DNA of 64,000 nt, taken from the NCBI GenBank assembly GCA_902540995.1, contig CACBOY010000003.1, forward strand, positions 6,703 to 70,702, in the 5' to 3' direction. The stretch comes from an uncultured SAR86 cluster bacterium (GTDB lineage Bacteria > Pseudomonadota > Gammaproteobacteria > Magnimaribacterales > AG-339-G14). Shown in pieces: positions 2,349-9,178 of this stretch; position 1 is the first letter of the stretch, and each line of letters begins with the position of its first letter. A program made the position numbers and the translations under genes. The notes beneath the pieces were generated by a model. It saw nothing but the letters and a program-made list of their open reading frames with translations, searched no databases and was not told the origin of the DNA.

Positions 2349-2816
2349 ATGAATTTTTTTATTGAGTACTTTAATAGCATTGTTGGAGCACTGGCAGCAA
2401 TTGGAGCTGTAGCTTCAATTTACTATTTAATACAAGAAATGAGAGAGCAAAACAGAGTAGCACGAGCAAATGCTAGGCAGAATGTCGCTGATAGCCATCA
2501 AGAAATTGCTTTAGAAGGCATGAAAAAAAGCATGGTTAAGATTAAGTTAAAACTGCGAAATGATGAGGAACTTACTCCTGAAGAAGACGCCAAATACATG
2601 TCATATTTCAGCATAATGTTACGGTCTAGAGAAAACCAACATTATCAATACACAATTGGCATGATCGATAAAGGAGAATGGGACAATTACAAAAGATCCT
2701 TCAAAACGCTTTTTAAATCAAAATATCATTTGAAACTATGGTCTTTCATGAAAAATACATTTAACGATAGCTTCGTTGAAGTTGTTGAGGAACTTATAGA
2801 AGATGACAATAATTGA
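2349..2816 (+). CDS. hypothetical membrane-anchored protein, first gene of the EAL/GGDEF operon
   Basis: 155 aa. It has one N-terminal TM helix (IVGALAAIGAVASIYYLI) followed by a charged soluble domain in which I recognise no family. Its 3' end overlaps the EAL gene by 14 nt. Confidence 0.5.
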   Translation: MNFFIEYFNSIVGALAAIGAVASIYYLIQEMREQNRVARANARQNVADSHQEIALEGMKKSMVKIKLKLRNDEELTPEEDAKYMSYFSIMLRSRENQHYQYTIGMIDKGEWDNYKRSFKTLFKSKYHLKLWSFMKNTFNDSFVEVVEELIEDDNN

Positions 2817-3891
2817 AGATCAACAGGCTAAATACCTAATTAAATCCCTGCAACATCACCCGAGCCCCTATTTGATTTTTTGTAAAGATGATGGGGTGGA
2901 ATGGATGAATCAATCTGCTCAATATGTTTTTGATACAACTGAAATAAGTGACATTGGTATCGCTCCAATAATATCTCATGGTACGTCAAAGAAAATAGAA
3001 GCAATTGGGTCTTCATTTCAATCCGATCTTGAACTCTCACTGAGAAAAATAAAATTTTTATTGAGATCTCGAGTTCACGAAATTCCCTTAGACAAAGAAG
3101 AATCTTTCTTTTTGATAGAGGTTTTGGCTCAGTCAGAGGCAGCTTTGGATGCTTTGAAAAATACCATTTCTTGTTTAGAAAATGATCGTATAGACATGGC
3201 TTACCAAAAACAATATGACCTTGCCACAGGAGACTTGGTTAGTGTGGAAACACTGCTACGATTAAGAGACGAAAAAGGAGATATTATCCCAAATGATAAA
3301 TTAATACCTCTGGTTGAAGGAGAAAGTTTATTTTCTCTTGTTGTGCTGGCTTCCATGCAGAAGTTAAAGGAGGTATTTGAATTTAAGAAAAAGAAAAAAT
3401 TAGACTTCACTGTTTATCTTAATGTTTCAGCTTATACAGCTATGCAAGAAAACTTTTGTAATCTCATTTTAGATTTTGTAAAAGAAAATAATCTTAATCC
3501 GGGAGACTTGGGGCTTGAAATCACAGAAACTGCAGAACTTGAAGATAGATCCAGAGCTGCAGAGTATTTTGAAAAACTTAAAAAACATGGAATACCTCTC
3601 GCGCTCGATGATTTTGGAGCAGGTTACTCTTCATTAAGTTATTTAAGAGACTTGCCGATTACTTTAGTAAAGCTTGATAAGGATTTTGCTAGAACTGTGT
3701 CTGAACAAGATACGCAAGAGCTCGTCAGATTTGTGGTAACAATTTGCAATAACATGGAGTTAGGTATGCTAGCTGAAGGGATTGAAACTGAGGAACAACA
3801 GAAAACATTTTTAGAACTTGGTTGCCACAAAGGCCAAGGATATTTTCATCACAGACCACAGTTTTTAAAGGATTTCAAGGAGGAATTTTAA
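2803..3891 (+). CDS. EAL-domain cyclic-di-GMP phosphodiesterase with an uncharacterised N-terminal domain of about 110 aa
   Basis: 362 aa. The EAL-domain catalytic set appears intact: ETLLR (EAL variant), LNVS, EITE, DDFGAGYSS, KLDK, EGIET and GQGY. Confidence 0.85.
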   Translation: MTIIEDQQAKYLIKSLQHHPSPYLIFCKDDGVEWMNQSAQYVFDTTEISDIGIAPIISHGTSKKIEAIGSSFQSDLELSLRKIKFLLRSRVHEIPLDKEESFFLIEVLAQSEAALDALKNTISCLENDRIDMAYQKQYDLATGDLVSVETLLRLRDEKGDIIPNDKLIPLVEGESLFSLVVLASMQKLKEVFEFKKKKKLDFTVYLNVSAYTAMQENFCNLILDFVKENNLNPGDLGLEITETAELEDRSRAAEYFEKLKKHGIPLALDDFGAGYSSLSYLRDLPITLVKLDKDFARTVSEQDTQELVRFVVTICNNMELGMLAEGIETEEQQKTFLELGCHKGQGYFHHRPQFLKDFKEEF

Positions 3892-5345
3892 TGGCTGTTT
3901 CGGAAAAACCTTCTAAAGGCGCGGAAAAAATATTACTCGCGCAAATTAAACAAGAGTTTGCAGCTCCTGCTGAAGCTATCGAACAATATATTGATTTAGT
4001 AGAAGAGTTTGGTGTAAAGAACAACCTCAATATCAGTTCAGAAATAAACCAAATCAAAGAAGCTGAAGACAAGCTCTTGAGTCAGTATGAGGATGCCTTT
4101 AGAGAAAATACGGCTGCAGACAAAAAAGCCAAAACATCACAAGAATACTCAGAGCTTAGACATAATCTTCGTACTCCTTTGAATGCAATAATTGGATATA
4201 GCGAAATTTTAATGGAAGACTTTGAAGATGATTTATCTGAGGAGTGTCTTAAAGATTTAAATACGATTTTAACTTTATCGAGAGAAACAGAGACGGCCAT
4301 AGAAAGATTTGTAGATTTTATTAAAGGTGACTTAAACGAAAAAGCCGCTGAAGATTCTGAACAAGGCCAAATTCAGAATGCTGAATCTCTATTTAGATCT
4401 TTAGGAGACATAGATTACAGTTTAGATATTGATGATTATCTCAAGGGGTCCGATGTGCTAATTGTTGATGATAACAAGACTAACTGTGAAGTTTTGGAAA
4501 GAAGATTAACTCAAAATGGGCTTTCTTGCAGAGTTGCTCTGGATGGGACAACCGCAATCAAAGAAGTGGATGCTAAAACTCCCGATCTTATTTTGCTAGA
4601 TGTAATGTTGCCGGACATAAACGGATTAGAGCTCCTTAAAAGATTTAGGAAGAACCATGATAGAGACGAGTTGCCAATCATTATGGTATCTGCATTCAAT
4701 GATGTTGATAGCACTGCTAAATGTATAAAGTTAGGGGCCTCAGACTATCTTCCTAAACCATTGAATGGAACAATTTTAATGGCGAAATCAATTGCGAGTT
4801 TAGAAGCAAAATATTTCAGAGCAAGAGAGCAAGAGTTATTAAAAGAATTAAATCTCAAAGCAACTACTTGCCCACTAACCGGAATCTATAACAGACAGGT
4901 TGTTTTTGACAAAATCGAGGAATGTTTCGAGAAACTGTCGCAAGAAAAAGGTTATGAATTTTCTTTACTTTCTATGGATATAGATTTTTTTAAATCTATA
5001 AATGACACTTATGGACACCCTGGAGGTGATGAGGTTTTGAAAGCTGTTGCTAATGGCTTAAGAGATGCATGCGGTAAAAACATTATTGGCAGAGTAGGTG
5101 GAGAGGAATTTATTGCAGTTTTAGAGAATAAAGAAGGAATGAGTTTGAACGATTACTGTGAGAATATAAGAAAGGCTGTAGTTGACTTATCAATTCCCTT
5201 CCAAGATGTTGAAATAAATATTACTATAAGTGGAGGAGTTATTAATTCATCTGAGGTTAAGGATCAAGAAGAACTTGTTAACCTTGCAGACGAAAGACTC
5301 TACAAAGCAAAAGAGGGGGGCAGAAATCAGTTTATTTATAGCTGA
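3891..5345 (+). CDS. DHp(H-box only)-REC-GGDEF protein (response-regulator diguanylate cyclase)
   Basis: I place the start at ATG 3891 (TAATG overlap with the EAL stop, AAGGAGG 7 nt upstream) rather than the track start 3822. The product is 484 aa. The H-box ELRHNLRTPLNAIIGYSEIL has its His at nt 4161-4163, and no HATPase N/G1/G2 boxes follow. The REC domain (DD..D237 at 4599-4601..KP) and GGEEF (5097-5111) are present, with no RxxD I-site just upstream. Confidence 0.85.
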   Translation: MAVSEKPSKGAEKILLAQIKQEFAAPAEAIEQYIDLVEEFGVKNNLNISSEINQIKEAEDKLLSQYEDAFRENTAADKKAKTSQEYSELRHNLRTPLNAIIGYSEILMEDFEDDLSEECLKDLNTILTLSRETETAIERFVDFIKGDLNEKAAEDSEQGQIQNAESLFRSLGDIDYSLDIDDYLKGSDVLIVDDNKTNCEVLERRLTQNGLSCRVALDGTTAIKEVDAKTPDLILLDVMLPDINGLELLKRFRKNHDRDELPIIMVSAFNDVDSTAKCIKLGASDYLPKPLNGTILMAKSIASLEAKYFRAREQELLKELNLKATTCPLTGIYNRQVVFDKIEECFEKLSQEKGYEFSLLSMDIDFFKSINDTYGHPGGDEVLKAVANGLRDACGKNIIGRVGGEEFIAVLENKEGMSLNDYCENIRKAVVDLSIPFQDVEINITISGGVINSSEVKDQEELVNLADERLYKAKEGGRNQFIYS

Positions 5346-5355
5346 GGAGAGAGTT

Positions 5356-5721
5356 ATGAAAAAGATTCTTTACGTAGAAGACAATGAAATGAATCGTGAC
5401 ATGTTAGGCAGAAGACTGACAAGAAGAGAATATGATGTCATCTTTGCTTTCGATGGTCAGGAAGGGCTTGATAAAATGAAATCAGAAAACCCAGACTTAG
5501 TTTTAATGGATATGGGTCTGCCTGTTCTGGACGGTTGGGAAGCCACTACACAGGCAAAAGCTGATCCCGAGATATCAAATATTCCAATCATTGCTTTAAC
5601 CGCTCATGCAATGGAACATGATAGACAAAAGGCTTTGGAGTGTGGGGCAGACGACTTTGACACAAAGCCAGTTGATTTTAAAAGGCTTTTAGAAAAAATT
5701 GAGTCGAATTTAGGTGCTTAG
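5356..5721 (+). CDS. single-domain response regulator (CheY-like receiver)
   Basis: The start is ATG 5356 with GAGGAGAG upstream; the track start 5230 lies inside the previous gene. The product is 121 aa. REC motifs are ILYVEDNEMN, LVLMD (Asp52 at 5509-5511), ALTAH and TKP. Confidence 0.85.
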   Translation: MKKILYVEDNEMNRDMLGRRLTRREYDVIFAFDGQEGLDKMKSENPDLVLMDMGLPVLDGWEATTQAKADPEISNIPIIALTAHAMEHDRQKALECGADDFDTKPVDFKRLLEKIESNLGA

Positions 5722-8711
5722 CTCTTAGCTCCTAATAATTTAGTAACCATTCCTGGAAGCTGATTAATAGATACTTCATCCTTTTTAACCAGCCCAGCAA
5801 CGTTCTTTCTTAAAAGTTCTTCTTGTACCTCTGATAAATCTTTTCCTGAATATACAAGAATATTAGGTTTATCTTCAAAATCCATTTCAACAAAGTTTTC
5901 TAAAAATTCGAAACCATCCATACGCGGCATTTCTAGATCTAAGACAATTAGCGCTGGGTTTTTATCCAAATTTTCAAGTCCTTCTTTTCCATCTCTAGCT
6001 AAGAAAGCTTCGTAACCAGCATCATTTAAGGCTCTTCCTAGAATATCTCTTGTATTCGAATCATCATCAACAACTAAGATTCTTTTGTTTGTTGAGCTAC
6101 CAAGTAAGTTAGTTACCATCTTAAGGAATTTATCCCTGTCAATTGGCTTGGTGAGATAGTCATCTGCTCCTAACGAAAATGCCAATGTTTCCTGCGACAT
6201 TTGGGAAACCATTATTACTGGAATGTCTTTTATAGATTCATCAGATTTGCATTCTTTTAAGATAGACCAACCATCTCTTCCCGGCATCAAAACATCTAAT
6301 AGAATGAGCTTTGGTTGTGATTCCCTAATCATATTCAGGCCTTGTTCACCATTAGTTGCTCCAATTAAAGTCATTCCAGCTTTTTTTACTGTCCTTTTTA
6401 TTAAGTCATGCATTGCTATATCATCATCAATTAGCACACATAAGTTTTCACCCTCTAAGGAAGAAATTTCTTCATTTTCGAGTTCTCCAGATTCATCACA
6501 GATTCTTGGAATAAAAATTGAAAATACAGATCCAACTCCTTTTTCACTGGATACCGTTACACCACCACCCATTAATTCAGCAAATCTTTTACTAATAGGC
6601 AGGCCTAGGCCTGTTCCGCCATGAGTTGCCGAGGTAGATCTTTCGGCTTGCTCATATTCTTCGAAGACTTTTGCTACTCCTTCTTCGCTCATACCTTCCC
6701 CATCATCAGTTACCTTGAATTCAATCATCTCAACTTCATCCTTCATGAAAGAATTAACATCTAAGGTTACTAAGCCGTTATTTGTAAATTTGAAGGCATT
6801 ACTTAAGAAATTTGTAACACACTGTCTAAGCTTCGTTTCATCTTGGGACATTGATCCTATAGCTTCTTGAATATTTATCTTGAAGCCATTGTCGTTTTTC
6901 GCCGCCAAAGGTGCGTTAATATCTCTAAGAGTTTCAACCACTTTTTCAATTTCGAAGCTGGTGATGAAAAGCTCCATTTTTCCAGACTCTATTTTTGAAA
7001 GGTCCAAAATATTATTAATCAGAGACAATAGATGTGTTCCAGAAGTAGTTATCTTCTTAAGATCAGGCATTAAATCTTCATAACCTAAATCTTCGCACTC
7101 TTCATATAGCATTTCTCCGTATCCTAAAATTGCATTCAATGGCGTTCTGAGTTCGTGACTCATATTGGCAAAAAATTTACTTCTCTGTTCATTTGCCTCA
7201 AGCGCTTCATCTCGAGACTCCTCCATCTCTTTGGTCCTTGTGTCTATAAGAACTTGTACTTCATCTGCCATTCTTGTGAATGCAACTGTCATTAATTCAA
7301 CTGAAGCTTCTTCTCCTTTATCCTGGGAGCTTTCTTGAGCAAGATTTTGCATCTTATTAATATCATTAAGAATTAAGGTTCTTGAATCTCCTTCAAGCTC
7401 ATCGGCAAGAATACTCATTTTTTCTATGATCGCAGTATCCCTTTCTTTTCTTCTGCGTGCCTGTTCAGTTCTGATATTTTCCATCTCATTAAGATGGCCT
7501 CTATAAATTTCTAGAGCCTTTGCAAGCTCACCAACCTCATCATTTTCAGATCTCAAAAGACCTCTTCTCTGTGGCATGGTTTTAGATAAGTCCCCACTGG
7601 TGAGAGCCTGAAGAACTTCAATTGCTTTATTTACTGATCCAAAAACATTAGCAAGAATTCCTGAAGTTAAAGCAATCACCAGAAAAATTACAATTGTAAT
7701 TATTATGTAGATTGAATTTAGGATAGCATTTTCTTGAGCGATACTTTCGCTTTCATCTCTAAAAATAAATAATTGTGCTTTATCTGATGAAAGGTATGAA
7801 CTCAATGGAAGAAGTGTGATGAGGGATCCTAAATCTGAATCTCTTGTAGAAGTTCTATTGCCAAACTCTTCTAAGTTTGAATTTGCCTTATCAACATGAC
7901 CTTTAATGTTGGTAATTCCAAAATTAGAAGTTTCGTCTAACTCTAAGCCTGACTCATATCTCGCATAATCGTCGCCTAATGAAATGATTCCTTCTTCTGT
8001 TTGTACTGCAGTAACAAGTTCAAATTCATCACCAAAGGTCTCCATAGACTTTCTTACATCTATTCCCATGACAATAATTGCTTCAGCATTTCTACTAAAA
8101 GCCTTTATCGGGAAAGCCATCATTTGGTTTAAGGTAGAAATTTTTTCTCCAGATGAGTCTACGATCTTTTGTAAAAATCTTCTTGGCCTCTTGCCTGCAT
8201 CAATAAGAAATTCGTCAAGATTATTATCGTATTCATTTTTAGCTTGAGGACTACATGCATCGATTCCAGATAAGTCCAGTGCGCTAGAACAATAAAACCT
8301 CTGCCCATTTGGATAATAAGCTTTAATAAAACTTAAATTCCCTTCATCCAAATCAAATTCAAACATTAGATCCAAGAGATATCCTGCTTCCCCAATGTTT
8401 TTATCCGTGATGAATTGGATTAACGGATTGGCATAATCGTCATCAGGTGAGGAAAGTTCCTCTTCAGGATATATAGGATTTTCGGGGTCCCAAAAATTTC
8501 CTCTTTCTCCAGTTACTGGAAGCCAGGCAGAAATAGCATCAATTGAAGTTTCGAGGGTCTGAAACCATGCAGCCTCATACGTTGAAACTAGAGACTCATT
8601 GGCAAAACTTTTTTGCGTAGTATCCCTATAGTTGAACAAAAAAAATAAGGAAAGGGCTAGCAGTAAGTTTCCTGCTAGGCCAATCCCAATTAATACTGTT
8701 CTGATACGCAT
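5718..8711 (-). CDS. hybrid sensor histidine kinase (periplasmic sensor-HAMP-coiled coil-HisKA-HATPase-REC-REC)
   Basis: 997 aa. TM1 spans aa 5-27, the periplasmic region aa 28-332 (nt 7716-8630) and TM2 aa 333-356. The H-box MSHELRTPLNAILGY has His519 at 7155-7157. The N box is NAFKFT and the G boxes are DDGEGM and GGTGLGL. Two receivers carry Asp806 (6294-6296) and Asp925 (5937-5939). No Hpt domain is present. Confidence 0.9.
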   Translation of the reverse strand: MRIRTVLIGIGLAGNLLLALSLFFLFNYRDTTQKSFANESLVSTYEAAWFQTLETSIDAISAWLPVTGERGNFWDPENPIYPEEELSSPDDDYANPLIQFITDKNIGEAGYLLDLMFEFDLDEGNLSFIKAYYPNGQRFYCSSALDLSGIDACSPQAKNEYDNNLDEFLIDAGKRPRRFLQKIVDSSGEKISTLNQMMAFPIKAFSRNAEAIIVMGIDVRKSMETFGDEFELVTAVQTEEGIISLGDDYARYESGLELDETSNFGITNIKGHVDKANSNLEEFGNRTSTRDSDLGSLITLLPLSSYLSSDKAQLFIFRDESESIAQENAILNSIYIIITIVIFLVIALTSGILANVFGSVNKAIEVLQALTSGDLSKTMPQRRGLLRSENDEVGELAKALEIYRGHLNEMENIRTEQARRRKERDTAIIEKMSILADELEGDSRTLILNDINKMQNLAQESSQDKGEEASVELMTVAFTRMADEVQVLIDTRTKEMEESRDEALEANEQRSKFFANMSHELRTPLNAILGYGEMLYEECEDLGYEDLMPDLKKITTSGTHLLSLINNILDLSKIESGKMELFITSFEIEKVVETLRDINAPLAAKNDNGFKINIQEAIGSMSQDETKLRQCVTNFLSNAFKFTNNGLVTLDVNSFMKDEVEMIEFKVTDDGEGMSEEGVAKVFEEYEQAERSTSATHGGTGLGLPISKRFAELMGGGVTVSSEKGVGSVFSIFIPRICDESGELENEEISSLEGENLCVLIDDDIAMHDLIKRTVKKAGMTLIGATNGEQGLNMIRESQPKLILLDVLMPGRDGWSILKECKSDESIKDIPVIMVSQMSQETLAFSLGADDYLTKPIDRDKFLKMVTNLLGSSTNKRILVVDDDSNTRDILGRALNDAGYEAFLARDGKEGLENLDKNPALIVLDLEMPRMDGFEFLENFVEMDFEDKPNILVYSGKDLSEVQEELLRKNVAGLVKKDEVSINQLPGMVTKLLGAKS

Positions 8712-8733: not shown

Positions 8734-9117
8734 TTATTGAACTCTGAAAGATAATTTAACTTGCACATCATTTACTTGGACAGGCACACCTTCATATATA
8801 GGCGGCTGATAAATCCACTTTCTGATAGATTTCATTGCTGCTCTATCGAAAAGTCCTGCAGGTTCTCCTTCTAAAACAAAAGGGTCTATGACATCACCGT
8901 CAGCGCTAACATCGAATTCAACGATTACGTAACCTTCTTTCGCAAGTCTCAAAGCTTTTCTTGGATAGCTTGCAGGTGCTTGATATTGTCTTTCAACATC
9001 CATTTCGATGTTTTTTCCGTCGACAGTAATAAAGCCCTTATCAGCATGTATTAAGGCACTAAGCCCTAAAAAAAGAATAGATAGAGACAATAATTTAATT
9101 CCTTTTTTAAATATCAT
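8734..9117 (-). CDS. secreted stand-alone TonB C-terminal-domain protein
   Basis: The preferred start is ATG 9117, with AGGAG 8 nt upstream. Translation from there gives the signal peptide MIFKKGIKLLSLSILFLGLSALIHA. The rest aligns with the C-terminal domain of the TonB encoded at 33526-34272 (YPRKALRLAKEGYV..DRAA..YQP). It has no proline-rich spacer and no N-terminal energy-coupling helix. Confidence 0.7.
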   Translation of the reverse strand: MIFKKGIKLLSLSILFLGLSALIHADKGFITVDGKNIEMDVERQYQAPASYPRKALRLAKEGYVIVEFDVSADGDVIDPFVLEGEPAGLFDRAAMKSIRKWIYQPPIYEGVPVQVNDVQVKLSFRVQ

Positions 9118-9178
9118 TTTTAAATCTCCTAAGATTTGAAGTATTATAAACAAAAAACTCCATAAATCATCTCACTTA

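Follow-up and report, generated by a model that had tools for sequence, protein, structure and literature searches.

Hybrid histidine kinases depend on a histidine relay to signal to their response regulators, and many have no identifiable Hpt partner, a long-standing gap in wiring two-component networks from genomes. A 64,000-nucleotide stretch of contig CACBOY010000003.1 from an uncultured SAR86 bacterium (the window) raises this question in compact form. The sequence matches single-cell genomes of SAR86 at 98% identity. Here a hybrid kinase without an Hpt domain lies close to a single-domain receiver (REC) and to a protein, encoded at 3891–5345, in which a HisKA-type DHp (dimerisation and histidine phosphotransfer) region precedes a receiver and a GGDEF diguanylate cyclase domain. 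Which protein would supply the missing histidine? On the evidence of family profiles, residues 1–145 of the 3891–5345 protein are an internally duplicated, ATPase-less DHp made of two helix-loop-helix hairpins, and we propose that this tandem DHp takes the place of Hpt. A first reading of the DNA letters alone (the original prediction) had already suggested an Hpt surrogate at this site.

A HisKA-family domain without an ATPase domain

Pfam assigns three domains to the protein: HisKA (PF00512; residues 87–145, 33.8 bits against a gathering cut-off of 26.9), Response_reg (residues 189–297, 99.5 bits, E = 1.7e-28) and GGDEF (residues 328–480, 120.8 bits, E = 6.2e-35). The same three domains are found in more than 120 orthologue clusters at 60–95% identity. 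The gene and its parts are as follows.

3891–5345, plus strand: tandem-DHp–REC–GGDEF gene, 484 residues (open reading frame translation, Pfam)
3915–4112, plus strand: DHp-like hairpin 1, degenerate, residues 9–74 (AlphaFold2 helices, profile–profile alignment)
4137–4325, plus strand: DHp hairpin 2, residues 83–145, with H-box LRHNLRTPLNAIIGYSEIL (Pfam HisKA, AlphaFold2 helices)
4326–4445, plus strand: linker, residues 146–185 (AlphaFold2 predicted local distance difference test score, pLDDT, below 50 except for a short helix)
4446–4790, plus strand: receiver domain, residues 186–300 (Pfam Response_reg)
4872–5330, plus strand: GGDEF diguanylate cyclase domain, residues 328–480 (Pfam GGDEF)

The protein gives no match to the HATPase_c, Hpt (PF01627), Spo0B or ChpT (PF10090) families in Pfam even at E ≤ 1, and an NCBIfam scan agrees that no ATPase domain is present. 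In two AlphaFold2 models, residues 110–185, where a cryptic HATPase domain might have been sought, comprise helices and disorder only and contain no α/β ATPase-like domain. The permissive scans and the two models together rule out a cryptic ATPase domain, in agreement with the original prediction of a HisKA–REC–GGDEF protein that lacks one. By these criteria, the N-terminus is a true HisKA-family domain, but the protein is not a kinase. The top sequence matches of the N-terminus in the PDB are HK853, DivL (4q20, E = 0.0096) and the EnvZ DHp, and the RetS DHp is among the weak matches.

Two DHp hairpins in one chain

Hairpin 2 carries His91 (nucleotides 4161–4163), followed by Asn92 at position H+1 and Thr95 at H+4. 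His91 lies within LRHNLRTPLNAIIGY and is constant in 160 of 160 orthologue-level sequences, down to about 55% identity, so that its predicted importance held when conservation was checked; H91, N92 and the entire H-box are constant among SAR86 orthologues. A second block, SKGAExILLxQIKQEFxxPAxAIxxY (residues 8–33), lies 70 residues upstream of the H-box and is conserved like it in the orthologues. This block belongs to hairpin 1, whose box IKQEFAAPAEAIEQY has Gln21 (nucleotides 3951–3953) at the position of the phospho-acceptor histidine. Relatives have a canonical LRHELRTPLNAIIGY box in hairpin 1, and in P0146 and P0143 LRHELRTPLNAIIGYSEMLLEDAED occurs twice, 73 residues apart; in other relatives the first box reads RQE.., GQDL.. 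or RDxL...

Profiles of the two hairpins align in register with Q21 on H91 (hhalign probability 99.3%, E = 8.4e-21), even though both were built solely from members with Gln in the first box. When the two hairpins of the SAR86 protein were compared directly by BLASTP, no alignment in register emerged; family profiles were needed to reveal the homology. The original prediction of a DHp fold in residues 1–185 thus stands as regards the four helices and the lack of a CA (catalytic, ATP-binding) domain, but the region is not a lone DHp, since residues 9–74 form a second, degenerate hairpin.

AlphaFold2, run on residues 1–185 with a 98-sequence alignment, predicts helices 9–43, 49–74, 83–110 and 117–145 (predicted template modelling score, pTM, 0.71), with about 45 residues disordered. 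The pLDDT of the four helices is 95–98 overall, with ranges of 85–98 in hairpin 1 and 89–98 in hairpin 2. The two hairpins are predicted to pack as a single-chain, pseudo-dimeric four-helix bundle with one live site, His91. In DHp domains, helix 2 terminates at the very end of the bundle where helix 1 of the partner begins, and the short linker between the hairpins (about eight residues, poorly conserved) is therefore what an intramolecular pseudo-dimer would need. The best Foldseek matches of the model are up-down four-helix bundles of about 140 residues, and these are weak (best E = 0.04).

Over 71 residues, hairpin 2 and the DHp of the neighbouring kinase are 37% identical, with a near-identical H-box. 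The original prediction had noted this likeness and taken it for a close paralogy; the likeness is real, but it is found family-wide and is not a matter of local paralogy. The simplest explanation for the origin of the module would be a duplication of the kinase DHp without the CA domain, which would have provided a histidine domain already matched to the same receivers.

One histidine per module

A HMMER search with residues 1–185 returned 3,206 relatives at E ≤ 0.001, many of which match the query in two to four stretches. Pfam scans of distant matches and a census of 80 loci show one, two or three tandem-DHp units per protein, and wherever the sequence continues, the unit is always followed next by a receiver. 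The output domains behind this receiver vary. Guanylate_cyc is the commonest in the census (38 of 80 loci with one unit, and four more with two or three), further outputs are GGDEF (in SAR86 and relatives) and SpoIIE/PP2C, and scans of other distant matches found PAS or GAF followed by a full HisKA–HATPase kinase core. With an invariable receiver and varied outputs, the tandem DHp behaves as an input module.

We aligned 396 modules, 160 at orthologue level and 236 distant, to a profile of the N-terminal unit and compared the residues at the two histidine positions. All 160 orthologue-level sequences have the combination Q21, H91 and N92. Among the distant modules, the hairpin 1/hairpin 2 pair is (Q,H) in 118, (H,H) in 51 and (H,Y) in 21; the remaining pairs are about 20 with D, E, R or another residue in hairpin 1 and His in hairpin 2, and about 22 with His in hairpin 1 and R, V, F, L, A, I or N in hairpin 2. 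Histidine is absent from both hairpins in only one of the 396 modules, a 169-residue fragment, whereas 5.5–34 double losses (depending on the redundancy filter) would be expected if the positions were independent. The one-sided Fisher p ranges from 9e-5 to 6e-30, again depending on the filter, with the value of 9e-5 referring to 56 clusters at 50% identity, from which all sequences retrieved with a His-containing pattern had been left out. The outcome is clear: a unit needs one live histidine, which may reside in either hairpin. This rule is what a single-chain pseudo-dimer with one active site would lead one to expect, in contrast to a purely structural or dimerisation role.

Two positions beside the histidine also differ in their conservation. 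H+1 is acidic in 187 of 236 distant modules, as opposed to Asn in all 160 SAR86 orthologues, and the Thr at H+4 is constant in SAR86 and present in 195 of 236 distant modules.

Several variants of the module were seen in the census. The 21 modules with Tyr at the hairpin 2 position and His kept in hairpin 1 include P0136, P0198, P0158, P0207, L053, L055 and L058. Adenylate cyclases of Beggiatoa, Thiomargarita and Thiotrichaceae type have two or three full tandem-DHp units, that is, up to six hairpins, before one REC (L075 6963–9551, L083 7386–9995, L069 2566–4776 and L040 7200–9371; also P0127, P0133 and P0134), with a live His in hairpin 2 of each of the units.

Many entries of 150–260 residues appear to be 'HisKA-only' and were considered as stand-alone tandem-DHp relay proteins. 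We rejected this idea, as they are mostly contig-end fragments or frameshifted genes. The short proteins P0277, P0281, P0287, P0290 and P0334 are encoded on long, high-GC contigs, and their Arg/Pro-rich tails resemble the following REC translated out of frame, which suggests frameshifts in the assembly or errors in gene calling and not stand-alone proteins.

A three-gene cassette across phyla

In the window, the target gene lies between the following genes.

2803–3891, plus strand: EAL phosphodiesterase gene, 362 residues, first gene of the plus-strand operon (Pfam EAL at residues 125–352, E = 1.4e-51)
5356–5721, plus strand: single-domain receiver, 121 residues, DivK-like (Pfam Response_reg at residues 4–116, E = 4.1e-26)
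5718–8711, minus strand: hybrid sensor kinase, 997 residues (Pfam and residue mapping)

These genes and the target are the sole signalling genes within the 64 kb. The kinase consists of a transmembrane helix, a periplasmic region of about 300 residues, a second transmembrane helix (residues 336–354), HAMP, HisKA, HATPase_c, REC1 and REC2. Its phosphorylation sites map to His519 (nucleotides 7155–7157), Asp806 of REC1 (6294–6296) and Asp925 of REC2 (5937–5939). The single REC has E8–D9, Asp52 (5509–5511), Thr82 and Lys104, together with the signature ALTAHAM...DTKP. Residue mapping placed His91, Asp237, Asp52, Asp806 and Asp925 exactly where the original prediction had put them. According to Pfam, the window kinase ends after REC2 and has no Hpt domain, as had also been predicted.

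The three genes at 3891–5345, 5356–5721 and 5718–8711 represent a recurring trio of a hybrid kinase (DHp–HATPase–REC–REC), a single REC of about 120–130 residues and a tandemDHp–REC–effector protein. The window shares its gene order of EAL, tandemDHp–REC–GGDEF, single REC and convergent kinase with three orthologous loci from metagenomes (68% and 61% protein identity) and with SAR86 genome loci. The kinase is syntenic in all SAR86 loci, the trio is present in most of about 50 distant loci, and the single-REC gene adjoins in nearly all cassettes across phyla. Outside SAR86, the trio is usually co-directional and tightly packed. The cassette occurs in Rhizobiales and Rhodospirillales (Bradyrhizobium, Sinorhizobium terangae, Phyllobacterium, Bauldia and Inquilinus), in SAR116, Arenicella and Beggiatoa- and Thiomargarita-like bacteria, and in Acidobacteria (Pyrinomonadales), Verrucomicrobia (Opitutaceae), Myxococcota and Gemmatimonadota. 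In the last 430 residues of the cassette kinases, Pfam identified HATPase_c and Response_reg in 47 of 47, and Hpt in none of the 47. Likewise, no credible Hpt-like motif was found in the 64-kb window or in the cassette flanks with a crude HxxKG-type regular expression, an insensitive search that gave spurious antisense matches only.

The cassettes contain four receiver classes, each conserved family-wide. The class of the single REC is characterised by VEDNEMNRDML.RRL ... ALTAHAM ... DTKP, and the receiver of the target protein falls into the 'output' class with NxxVLERRL in helix α1. The α1 motif NRD(L/M)LxRRL is common to single REC and output REC, and α1 is the element of a receiver that docks on DHp or Hpt in published complexes (PMC9981736). 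Given this shared α1 and the likeness of hairpin 2 to the kinase DHp, one histidine-domain surface could serve both receivers.

REC2 of the kinase (residues 875–990) is the least conserved of the four classes across the family. In the SAR86 protein it keeps Asp925, but there is no Pro after the β5 Lys (GLVKKDE) and Ser stands in place of Thr. Its role may be regulation and not relay.

The single-REC gene and the kinase gene of the window converge, and their stops overlap by four nucleotides (5718–5721), so that no terminator would fit between the two; outside SAR86, most cassettes have the kinase upstream and in the same direction. A Chloroflexota locus (L047, 7026–15597) encodes in series a hybrid kinase, a single REC, a tandemDHp–REC–HATPase protein, a second hybrid kinase and a tandemDHp–REC protein, which looks like chained cassettes with the module feeding the second kinase.

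A proposed phosphorelay and its alternatives

We propose that a His–Asp–His–Asp relay is closed by the tandem DHp, acting in place of Hpt as a histidine phosphotransfer domain fused in cis, and we give this proposal about an even chance. The kinase would autophosphorylate His519 and pass the phosphate to an intermediate receiver, which could be Asp52 of the single REC or REC1 or REC2 of the kinase itself. From there the phosphate would move to His91 of the tandem DHp and on to Asp237 in cis, and the phosphorylated REC would switch on the DgcR-like, coiled-coil-linked GGDEF cyclase to make cyclic di-GMP (c-di-GMP), with the co-translated EAL enzyme working against it. The bundle in this scheme is a structure prediction, and each transfer step, as well as the choice of intermediate receiver, is inferred. 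The Hpt-surrogate interpretation of the original prediction is nevertheless supported: the protein has no ATPase domain and His91 is invariant in the orthologues, a histidine is retained family-wide, and the module is linked across phyla to a single REC and a hybrid kinase without Hpt.

The residue at H+1 fits such a role. In mutagenesis of HisKA kinases by Willett and Kirby in 2012, an acidic residue at H+1 was reportedly needed for ATP-dependent autophosphorylation but not for transfer, and Thr or Asn at H+4 for phosphatase activity. Asn92 thus fits a site that is never phosphorylated from ATP and argues against the kinase CA domain acting on His91 in SAR86. By this analogy Asn92 would be compatible with both a transfer and a phosphatase role.

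A number of points weigh against the relay. The conserved Thr at H+4 is the residue tied to phosphatase activity in HisKA kinases, and a simple relay would need fewer intermediate receivers than the three candidates in the cassette. The top Foldseek matches of the N-terminal model (best E = 0.04) include neither an Hpt nor a DHp chain. The four-helix packing rests on the pTM value and on these weak matches, and a domain-swapped dimer may be formed instead. The full-length AlphaFold2 model (pTM 0.47) gives no support for docking of His91 to Asp237. The histidine counts in the 396 modules are inflated by shared ancestry and by ascertainment from His-bearing queries. Finally, an Hpt protein could be encoded elsewhere in the SAR86 genome, as the search covered the 64-kb window and the cassette flanks.

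The alternative that survives best, although we consider it unlikely, is that the tandem DHp is a phosphatase acting in cis. The kinase DHp would phosphorylate the output REC and the single REC directly, and the tandem DHp would dock its own REC, speed up dephosphorylation of Asp237 and so set the lifetime of the signal. The Thr at H+4, constant in SAR86 and frequent elsewhere, occupies the phosphatase position of the HisKA E/DxxT/N motif, and the loss of the acidic H+1 residue in SAR86 would be a change of the kinase-off, phosphatase-on type. The output REC and the single REC are alike in helix α1, and the kinase DHp could act directly on the single REC as well. Galperin et al. have raised a phosphatase function as a general possibility for HisKA proteins that lack HATPase (PMC5847659). 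Under this explanation there is no reason for every cassette kinase to be a two-receiver hybrid that lacks Hpt. It also sits poorly with the histidine pattern: several HisKA kinases can act as phosphatases without their histidine, yet the modules almost invariably retain at least one His, which is able to switch hairpins.

Could the module instead work without any chemistry at His91? As a non-catalytic scaffold, the tandem DHp would dock a receiver (for example, the phosphorylated single REC) or heteromerise with the kinase DHp, and would gate REC–GGDEF allosterically, much as DivL binds DivK~P and RetS heteromerises with GacS. DivL is indeed among the top solved-structure sequence matches of the N-terminus and the RetS DHp among the weak ones, the single REC is DivK-like, and the 21 modules with Tyr in hairpin 2 show the same change as DivL. 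We nevertheless regard a scaffold as improbable, because it predicts neither the near-absolute retention of at least one His per module nor the constancy of the whole H-box in SAR86, and because the dimerisation surface for RetS-like heteromerisation would already be occupied if the hairpins pair intramolecularly.

Direct trans-phosphorylation, in which the kinase CA would phosphorylate His91 from ATP through H-box mimicry (as CheA P1 is served by P4), His91 would pass the phosphate to Asp237, and kinase receivers and single REC would be sinks or regulators, is about as improbable: the near-identical H-box of hairpin 2 and the kinase DHp and the acidic H+1 of most distant members would suit it, but the Asn at H+1 in every SAR86 orthologue is expected to abolish ATP-dependent phosphorylation of the histidine, and three conserved Asp-bearing receivers would be left without a role in the forward path.

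The relay and these other roles are not mutually exclusive, and relay and phosphatase activities could coexist in the tandem DHp. Taking the phosphorelay as the preferred reading, we tentatively extend it to the family as a whole, with less confidence than for the SAR86 protein: the tandem CA-less DHp may be a third structural class of histidine phosphotransfer domain beside Hpt and Spo0B/ChpT and may form, with a two-receiver hybrid kinase and a DivK-like receiver, a widespread phosphorelay cassette that controls cAMP/cGMP, c-di-GMP, PP2C or secondary-kinase outputs across many phyla, SAR86 included. In this class, one live His would suffice for a pseudo-dimeric bundle that is part of the terminal response regulator. 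A full-text literature search, with subscription journals mostly outside its coverage, found no published description of the module or the cassette; what comes closest is the general comment of Galperin et al. on HisKA proteins that lack HATPase (PMC5847659).

Linker, receiver and cyclase of the target protein

The linker behind the tandem DHp contains a short, conserved amphipathic helix, AExLFxSLGxxDY (residues 164–176), in which A164, E165, L167, F168, L171, G172 and Y176 are constant in orthologues. The receiver has D193/D194, the phospho-acceptor Asp237 (nucleotides 4599–4601), Ser267 and Lys289, all of them constant in orthologues. In the AlphaFold2 model its helix α5 runs on into a long helix (residues 293–325) toward the GGDEF domain. 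The nearest solved structure to the C-terminal 300 or so residues is DgcR (6zxb; Foldseek E = 1.2e-22 at 32% identity, phmmer E = 2.5e-42), and the NCBIfam DgcR model aligns over residues 188–482. This likeness and the long helix make it likely, by analogy with the DgcR literature, that the cyclase is activated through the REC dimer and a register shift in the coiled coil.

The GGEEF active site (residues 403–407, nucleotides 5097–5111) is constant in orthologues, as are the metal- and substrate-binding residues. An RxxD I-site, which is common but not obligatory in Rec–GGDEF cyclases, is not present: the sequence is CGKN-IIGRV-GGEEF, with CGKN five residues upstream of GGEEF, which agrees with what had been predicted, and orthologues have CGGN, SEPN or CKPN at this position. 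The missing RxxD implies that there is no classical product inhibition, and the translationally coupled EAL enzyme would supply the opposing activity.

Neighbouring genes

The ATG of the target gene at 3891 overlaps the stop of the EAL gene (TAATG) and is preceded by an AAGGAGG Shine–Dalgarno sequence inside the end of the EAL coding sequence (3878–3893). Phosphodiesterase and cyclase are probably translationally coupled. Most orthologues start at the same position (483–492 residues listed), and a minority are called from an upstream start (507 residues). The EAL domain is preceded by an N-terminal region of about 120 residues without an assigned function, and the EAL gene holds the same position in SAR86 orthologous loci.

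A 155-residue open reading frame (2349–2816, plus strand) runs 14 nucleotides into the EAL gene; its product has a hydrophobic N-terminal segment and may be a fifth, membrane-anchored member of the operon. A 154-residue reading frame without a Pfam family is found at the matching place in both P0051 orthologue loci (L001/L002, 6446–6910). Directly downstream of the kinase lies a gene for a TonB_C-domain protein (8734–9153, minus strand), whose position is kept in the three metagenome loci L001–L003.

Implications

If the proposed relay is correct, a class of 'orphan' hybrid kinases in Rhizobiales, Beggiatoa-like bacteria, Acidobacteria, Verrucomicrobia, Myxococcota and SAR86 would gain a predicted partner that is recognisable from sequence. 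The architecture is visible in domain databases, where family members are annotated as 'diguanylate cyclase', 'adenylate cyclase' or 'histidine kinase', and these annotations could then be corrected. One live His in either hairpin is a clean and testable design rule, and the module would show how a phosphorelay can arise by duplication of a kinase's own DHp. SAR86 itself is a streamlined, uncultured and very abundant ocean bacterium, and its gene cluster points to regulated c-di-GMP turnover in a planktonic organism.

Comparison with known phosphorelays

For the histidine step of a phosphorelay, two options are recognised, an 'HPt protein or pseudo-HK' (PMC9981736); if our reading holds, a third form would be an internally duplicated DHp that lacks CA and is fused to the terminal regulator. 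Of the known systems, Spo0F–Spo0B–Spo0A of Bacillus subtilis is similar in that a DHp-type four-helix bundle, not an Hpt domain, provides the histidine step (the function proposed here), a single-domain receiver feeds this step (Spo0F and, by our proposal, the 121-residue REC) and a REC–effector protein is the terminal acceptor. Spo0B is a separate homodimer with a C-terminal degenerate CA-like domain, whereas the SAR86 protein has no CA-like domain, carries both hairpins, one of them degenerate, in a single chain that is fused to the terminal regulator, and is paired with a kinase that has two receivers.

The CckA–ChpT–CtrA/CpdR system of Caulobacter likewise relies on a DHp-derived histidine phosphotransferase to serve a hybrid kinase without Hpt, as we propose here. 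ChpT is a stand-alone homodimer composed of a DHp and a degenerate CA domain, in contrast to the tandem repeat in SAR86, which is fused in cis and has no CA remnant. The analogy to Spo0B and ChpT drawn in the original prediction thus holds for function but not for architecture, because both are homodimers with a pseudo-CA domain and the predicted SAR86 bundle is a tandem, single-chain repeat.

Hpt domains (the C-termini of ArcB, BarA and TorS; Ypd1, HptB) share with the tandem DHp the proposed histidine relay between two receivers and may also resemble it in gross shape, predicted to be a monomeric four-helix bundle with one active His. They have no sequence relation to it and are not among its Foldseek matches, and the SAR86 helices of about 30 residues are of DHp origin and have a HisKA-type H-box. 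In the C-terminal 300 residues, the protein resembles DgcR of Leptospira, PleD and WspR, with a REC, a long helical linker and a GGDEF domain, but these cyclases are without an N-terminal DHp module and their wild types carry the RxxD I-site that the SAR86 protein lacks.

The DivL–DivK pair of Caulobacter provides a parallel for the degenerate hairpin. DivL has a HisKA-type DHp in which the histidine is replaced by Tyr, comparable to the Gln, Tyr or other residue in one hairpin of the modules described here, and it binds a DivK-like single receiver of the kind that the SAR86 cassette encodes. DivL, however, is a homodimer that retains its CA domain and lacks a live His, whereas tandem-DHp modules keep a His in one hairpin.

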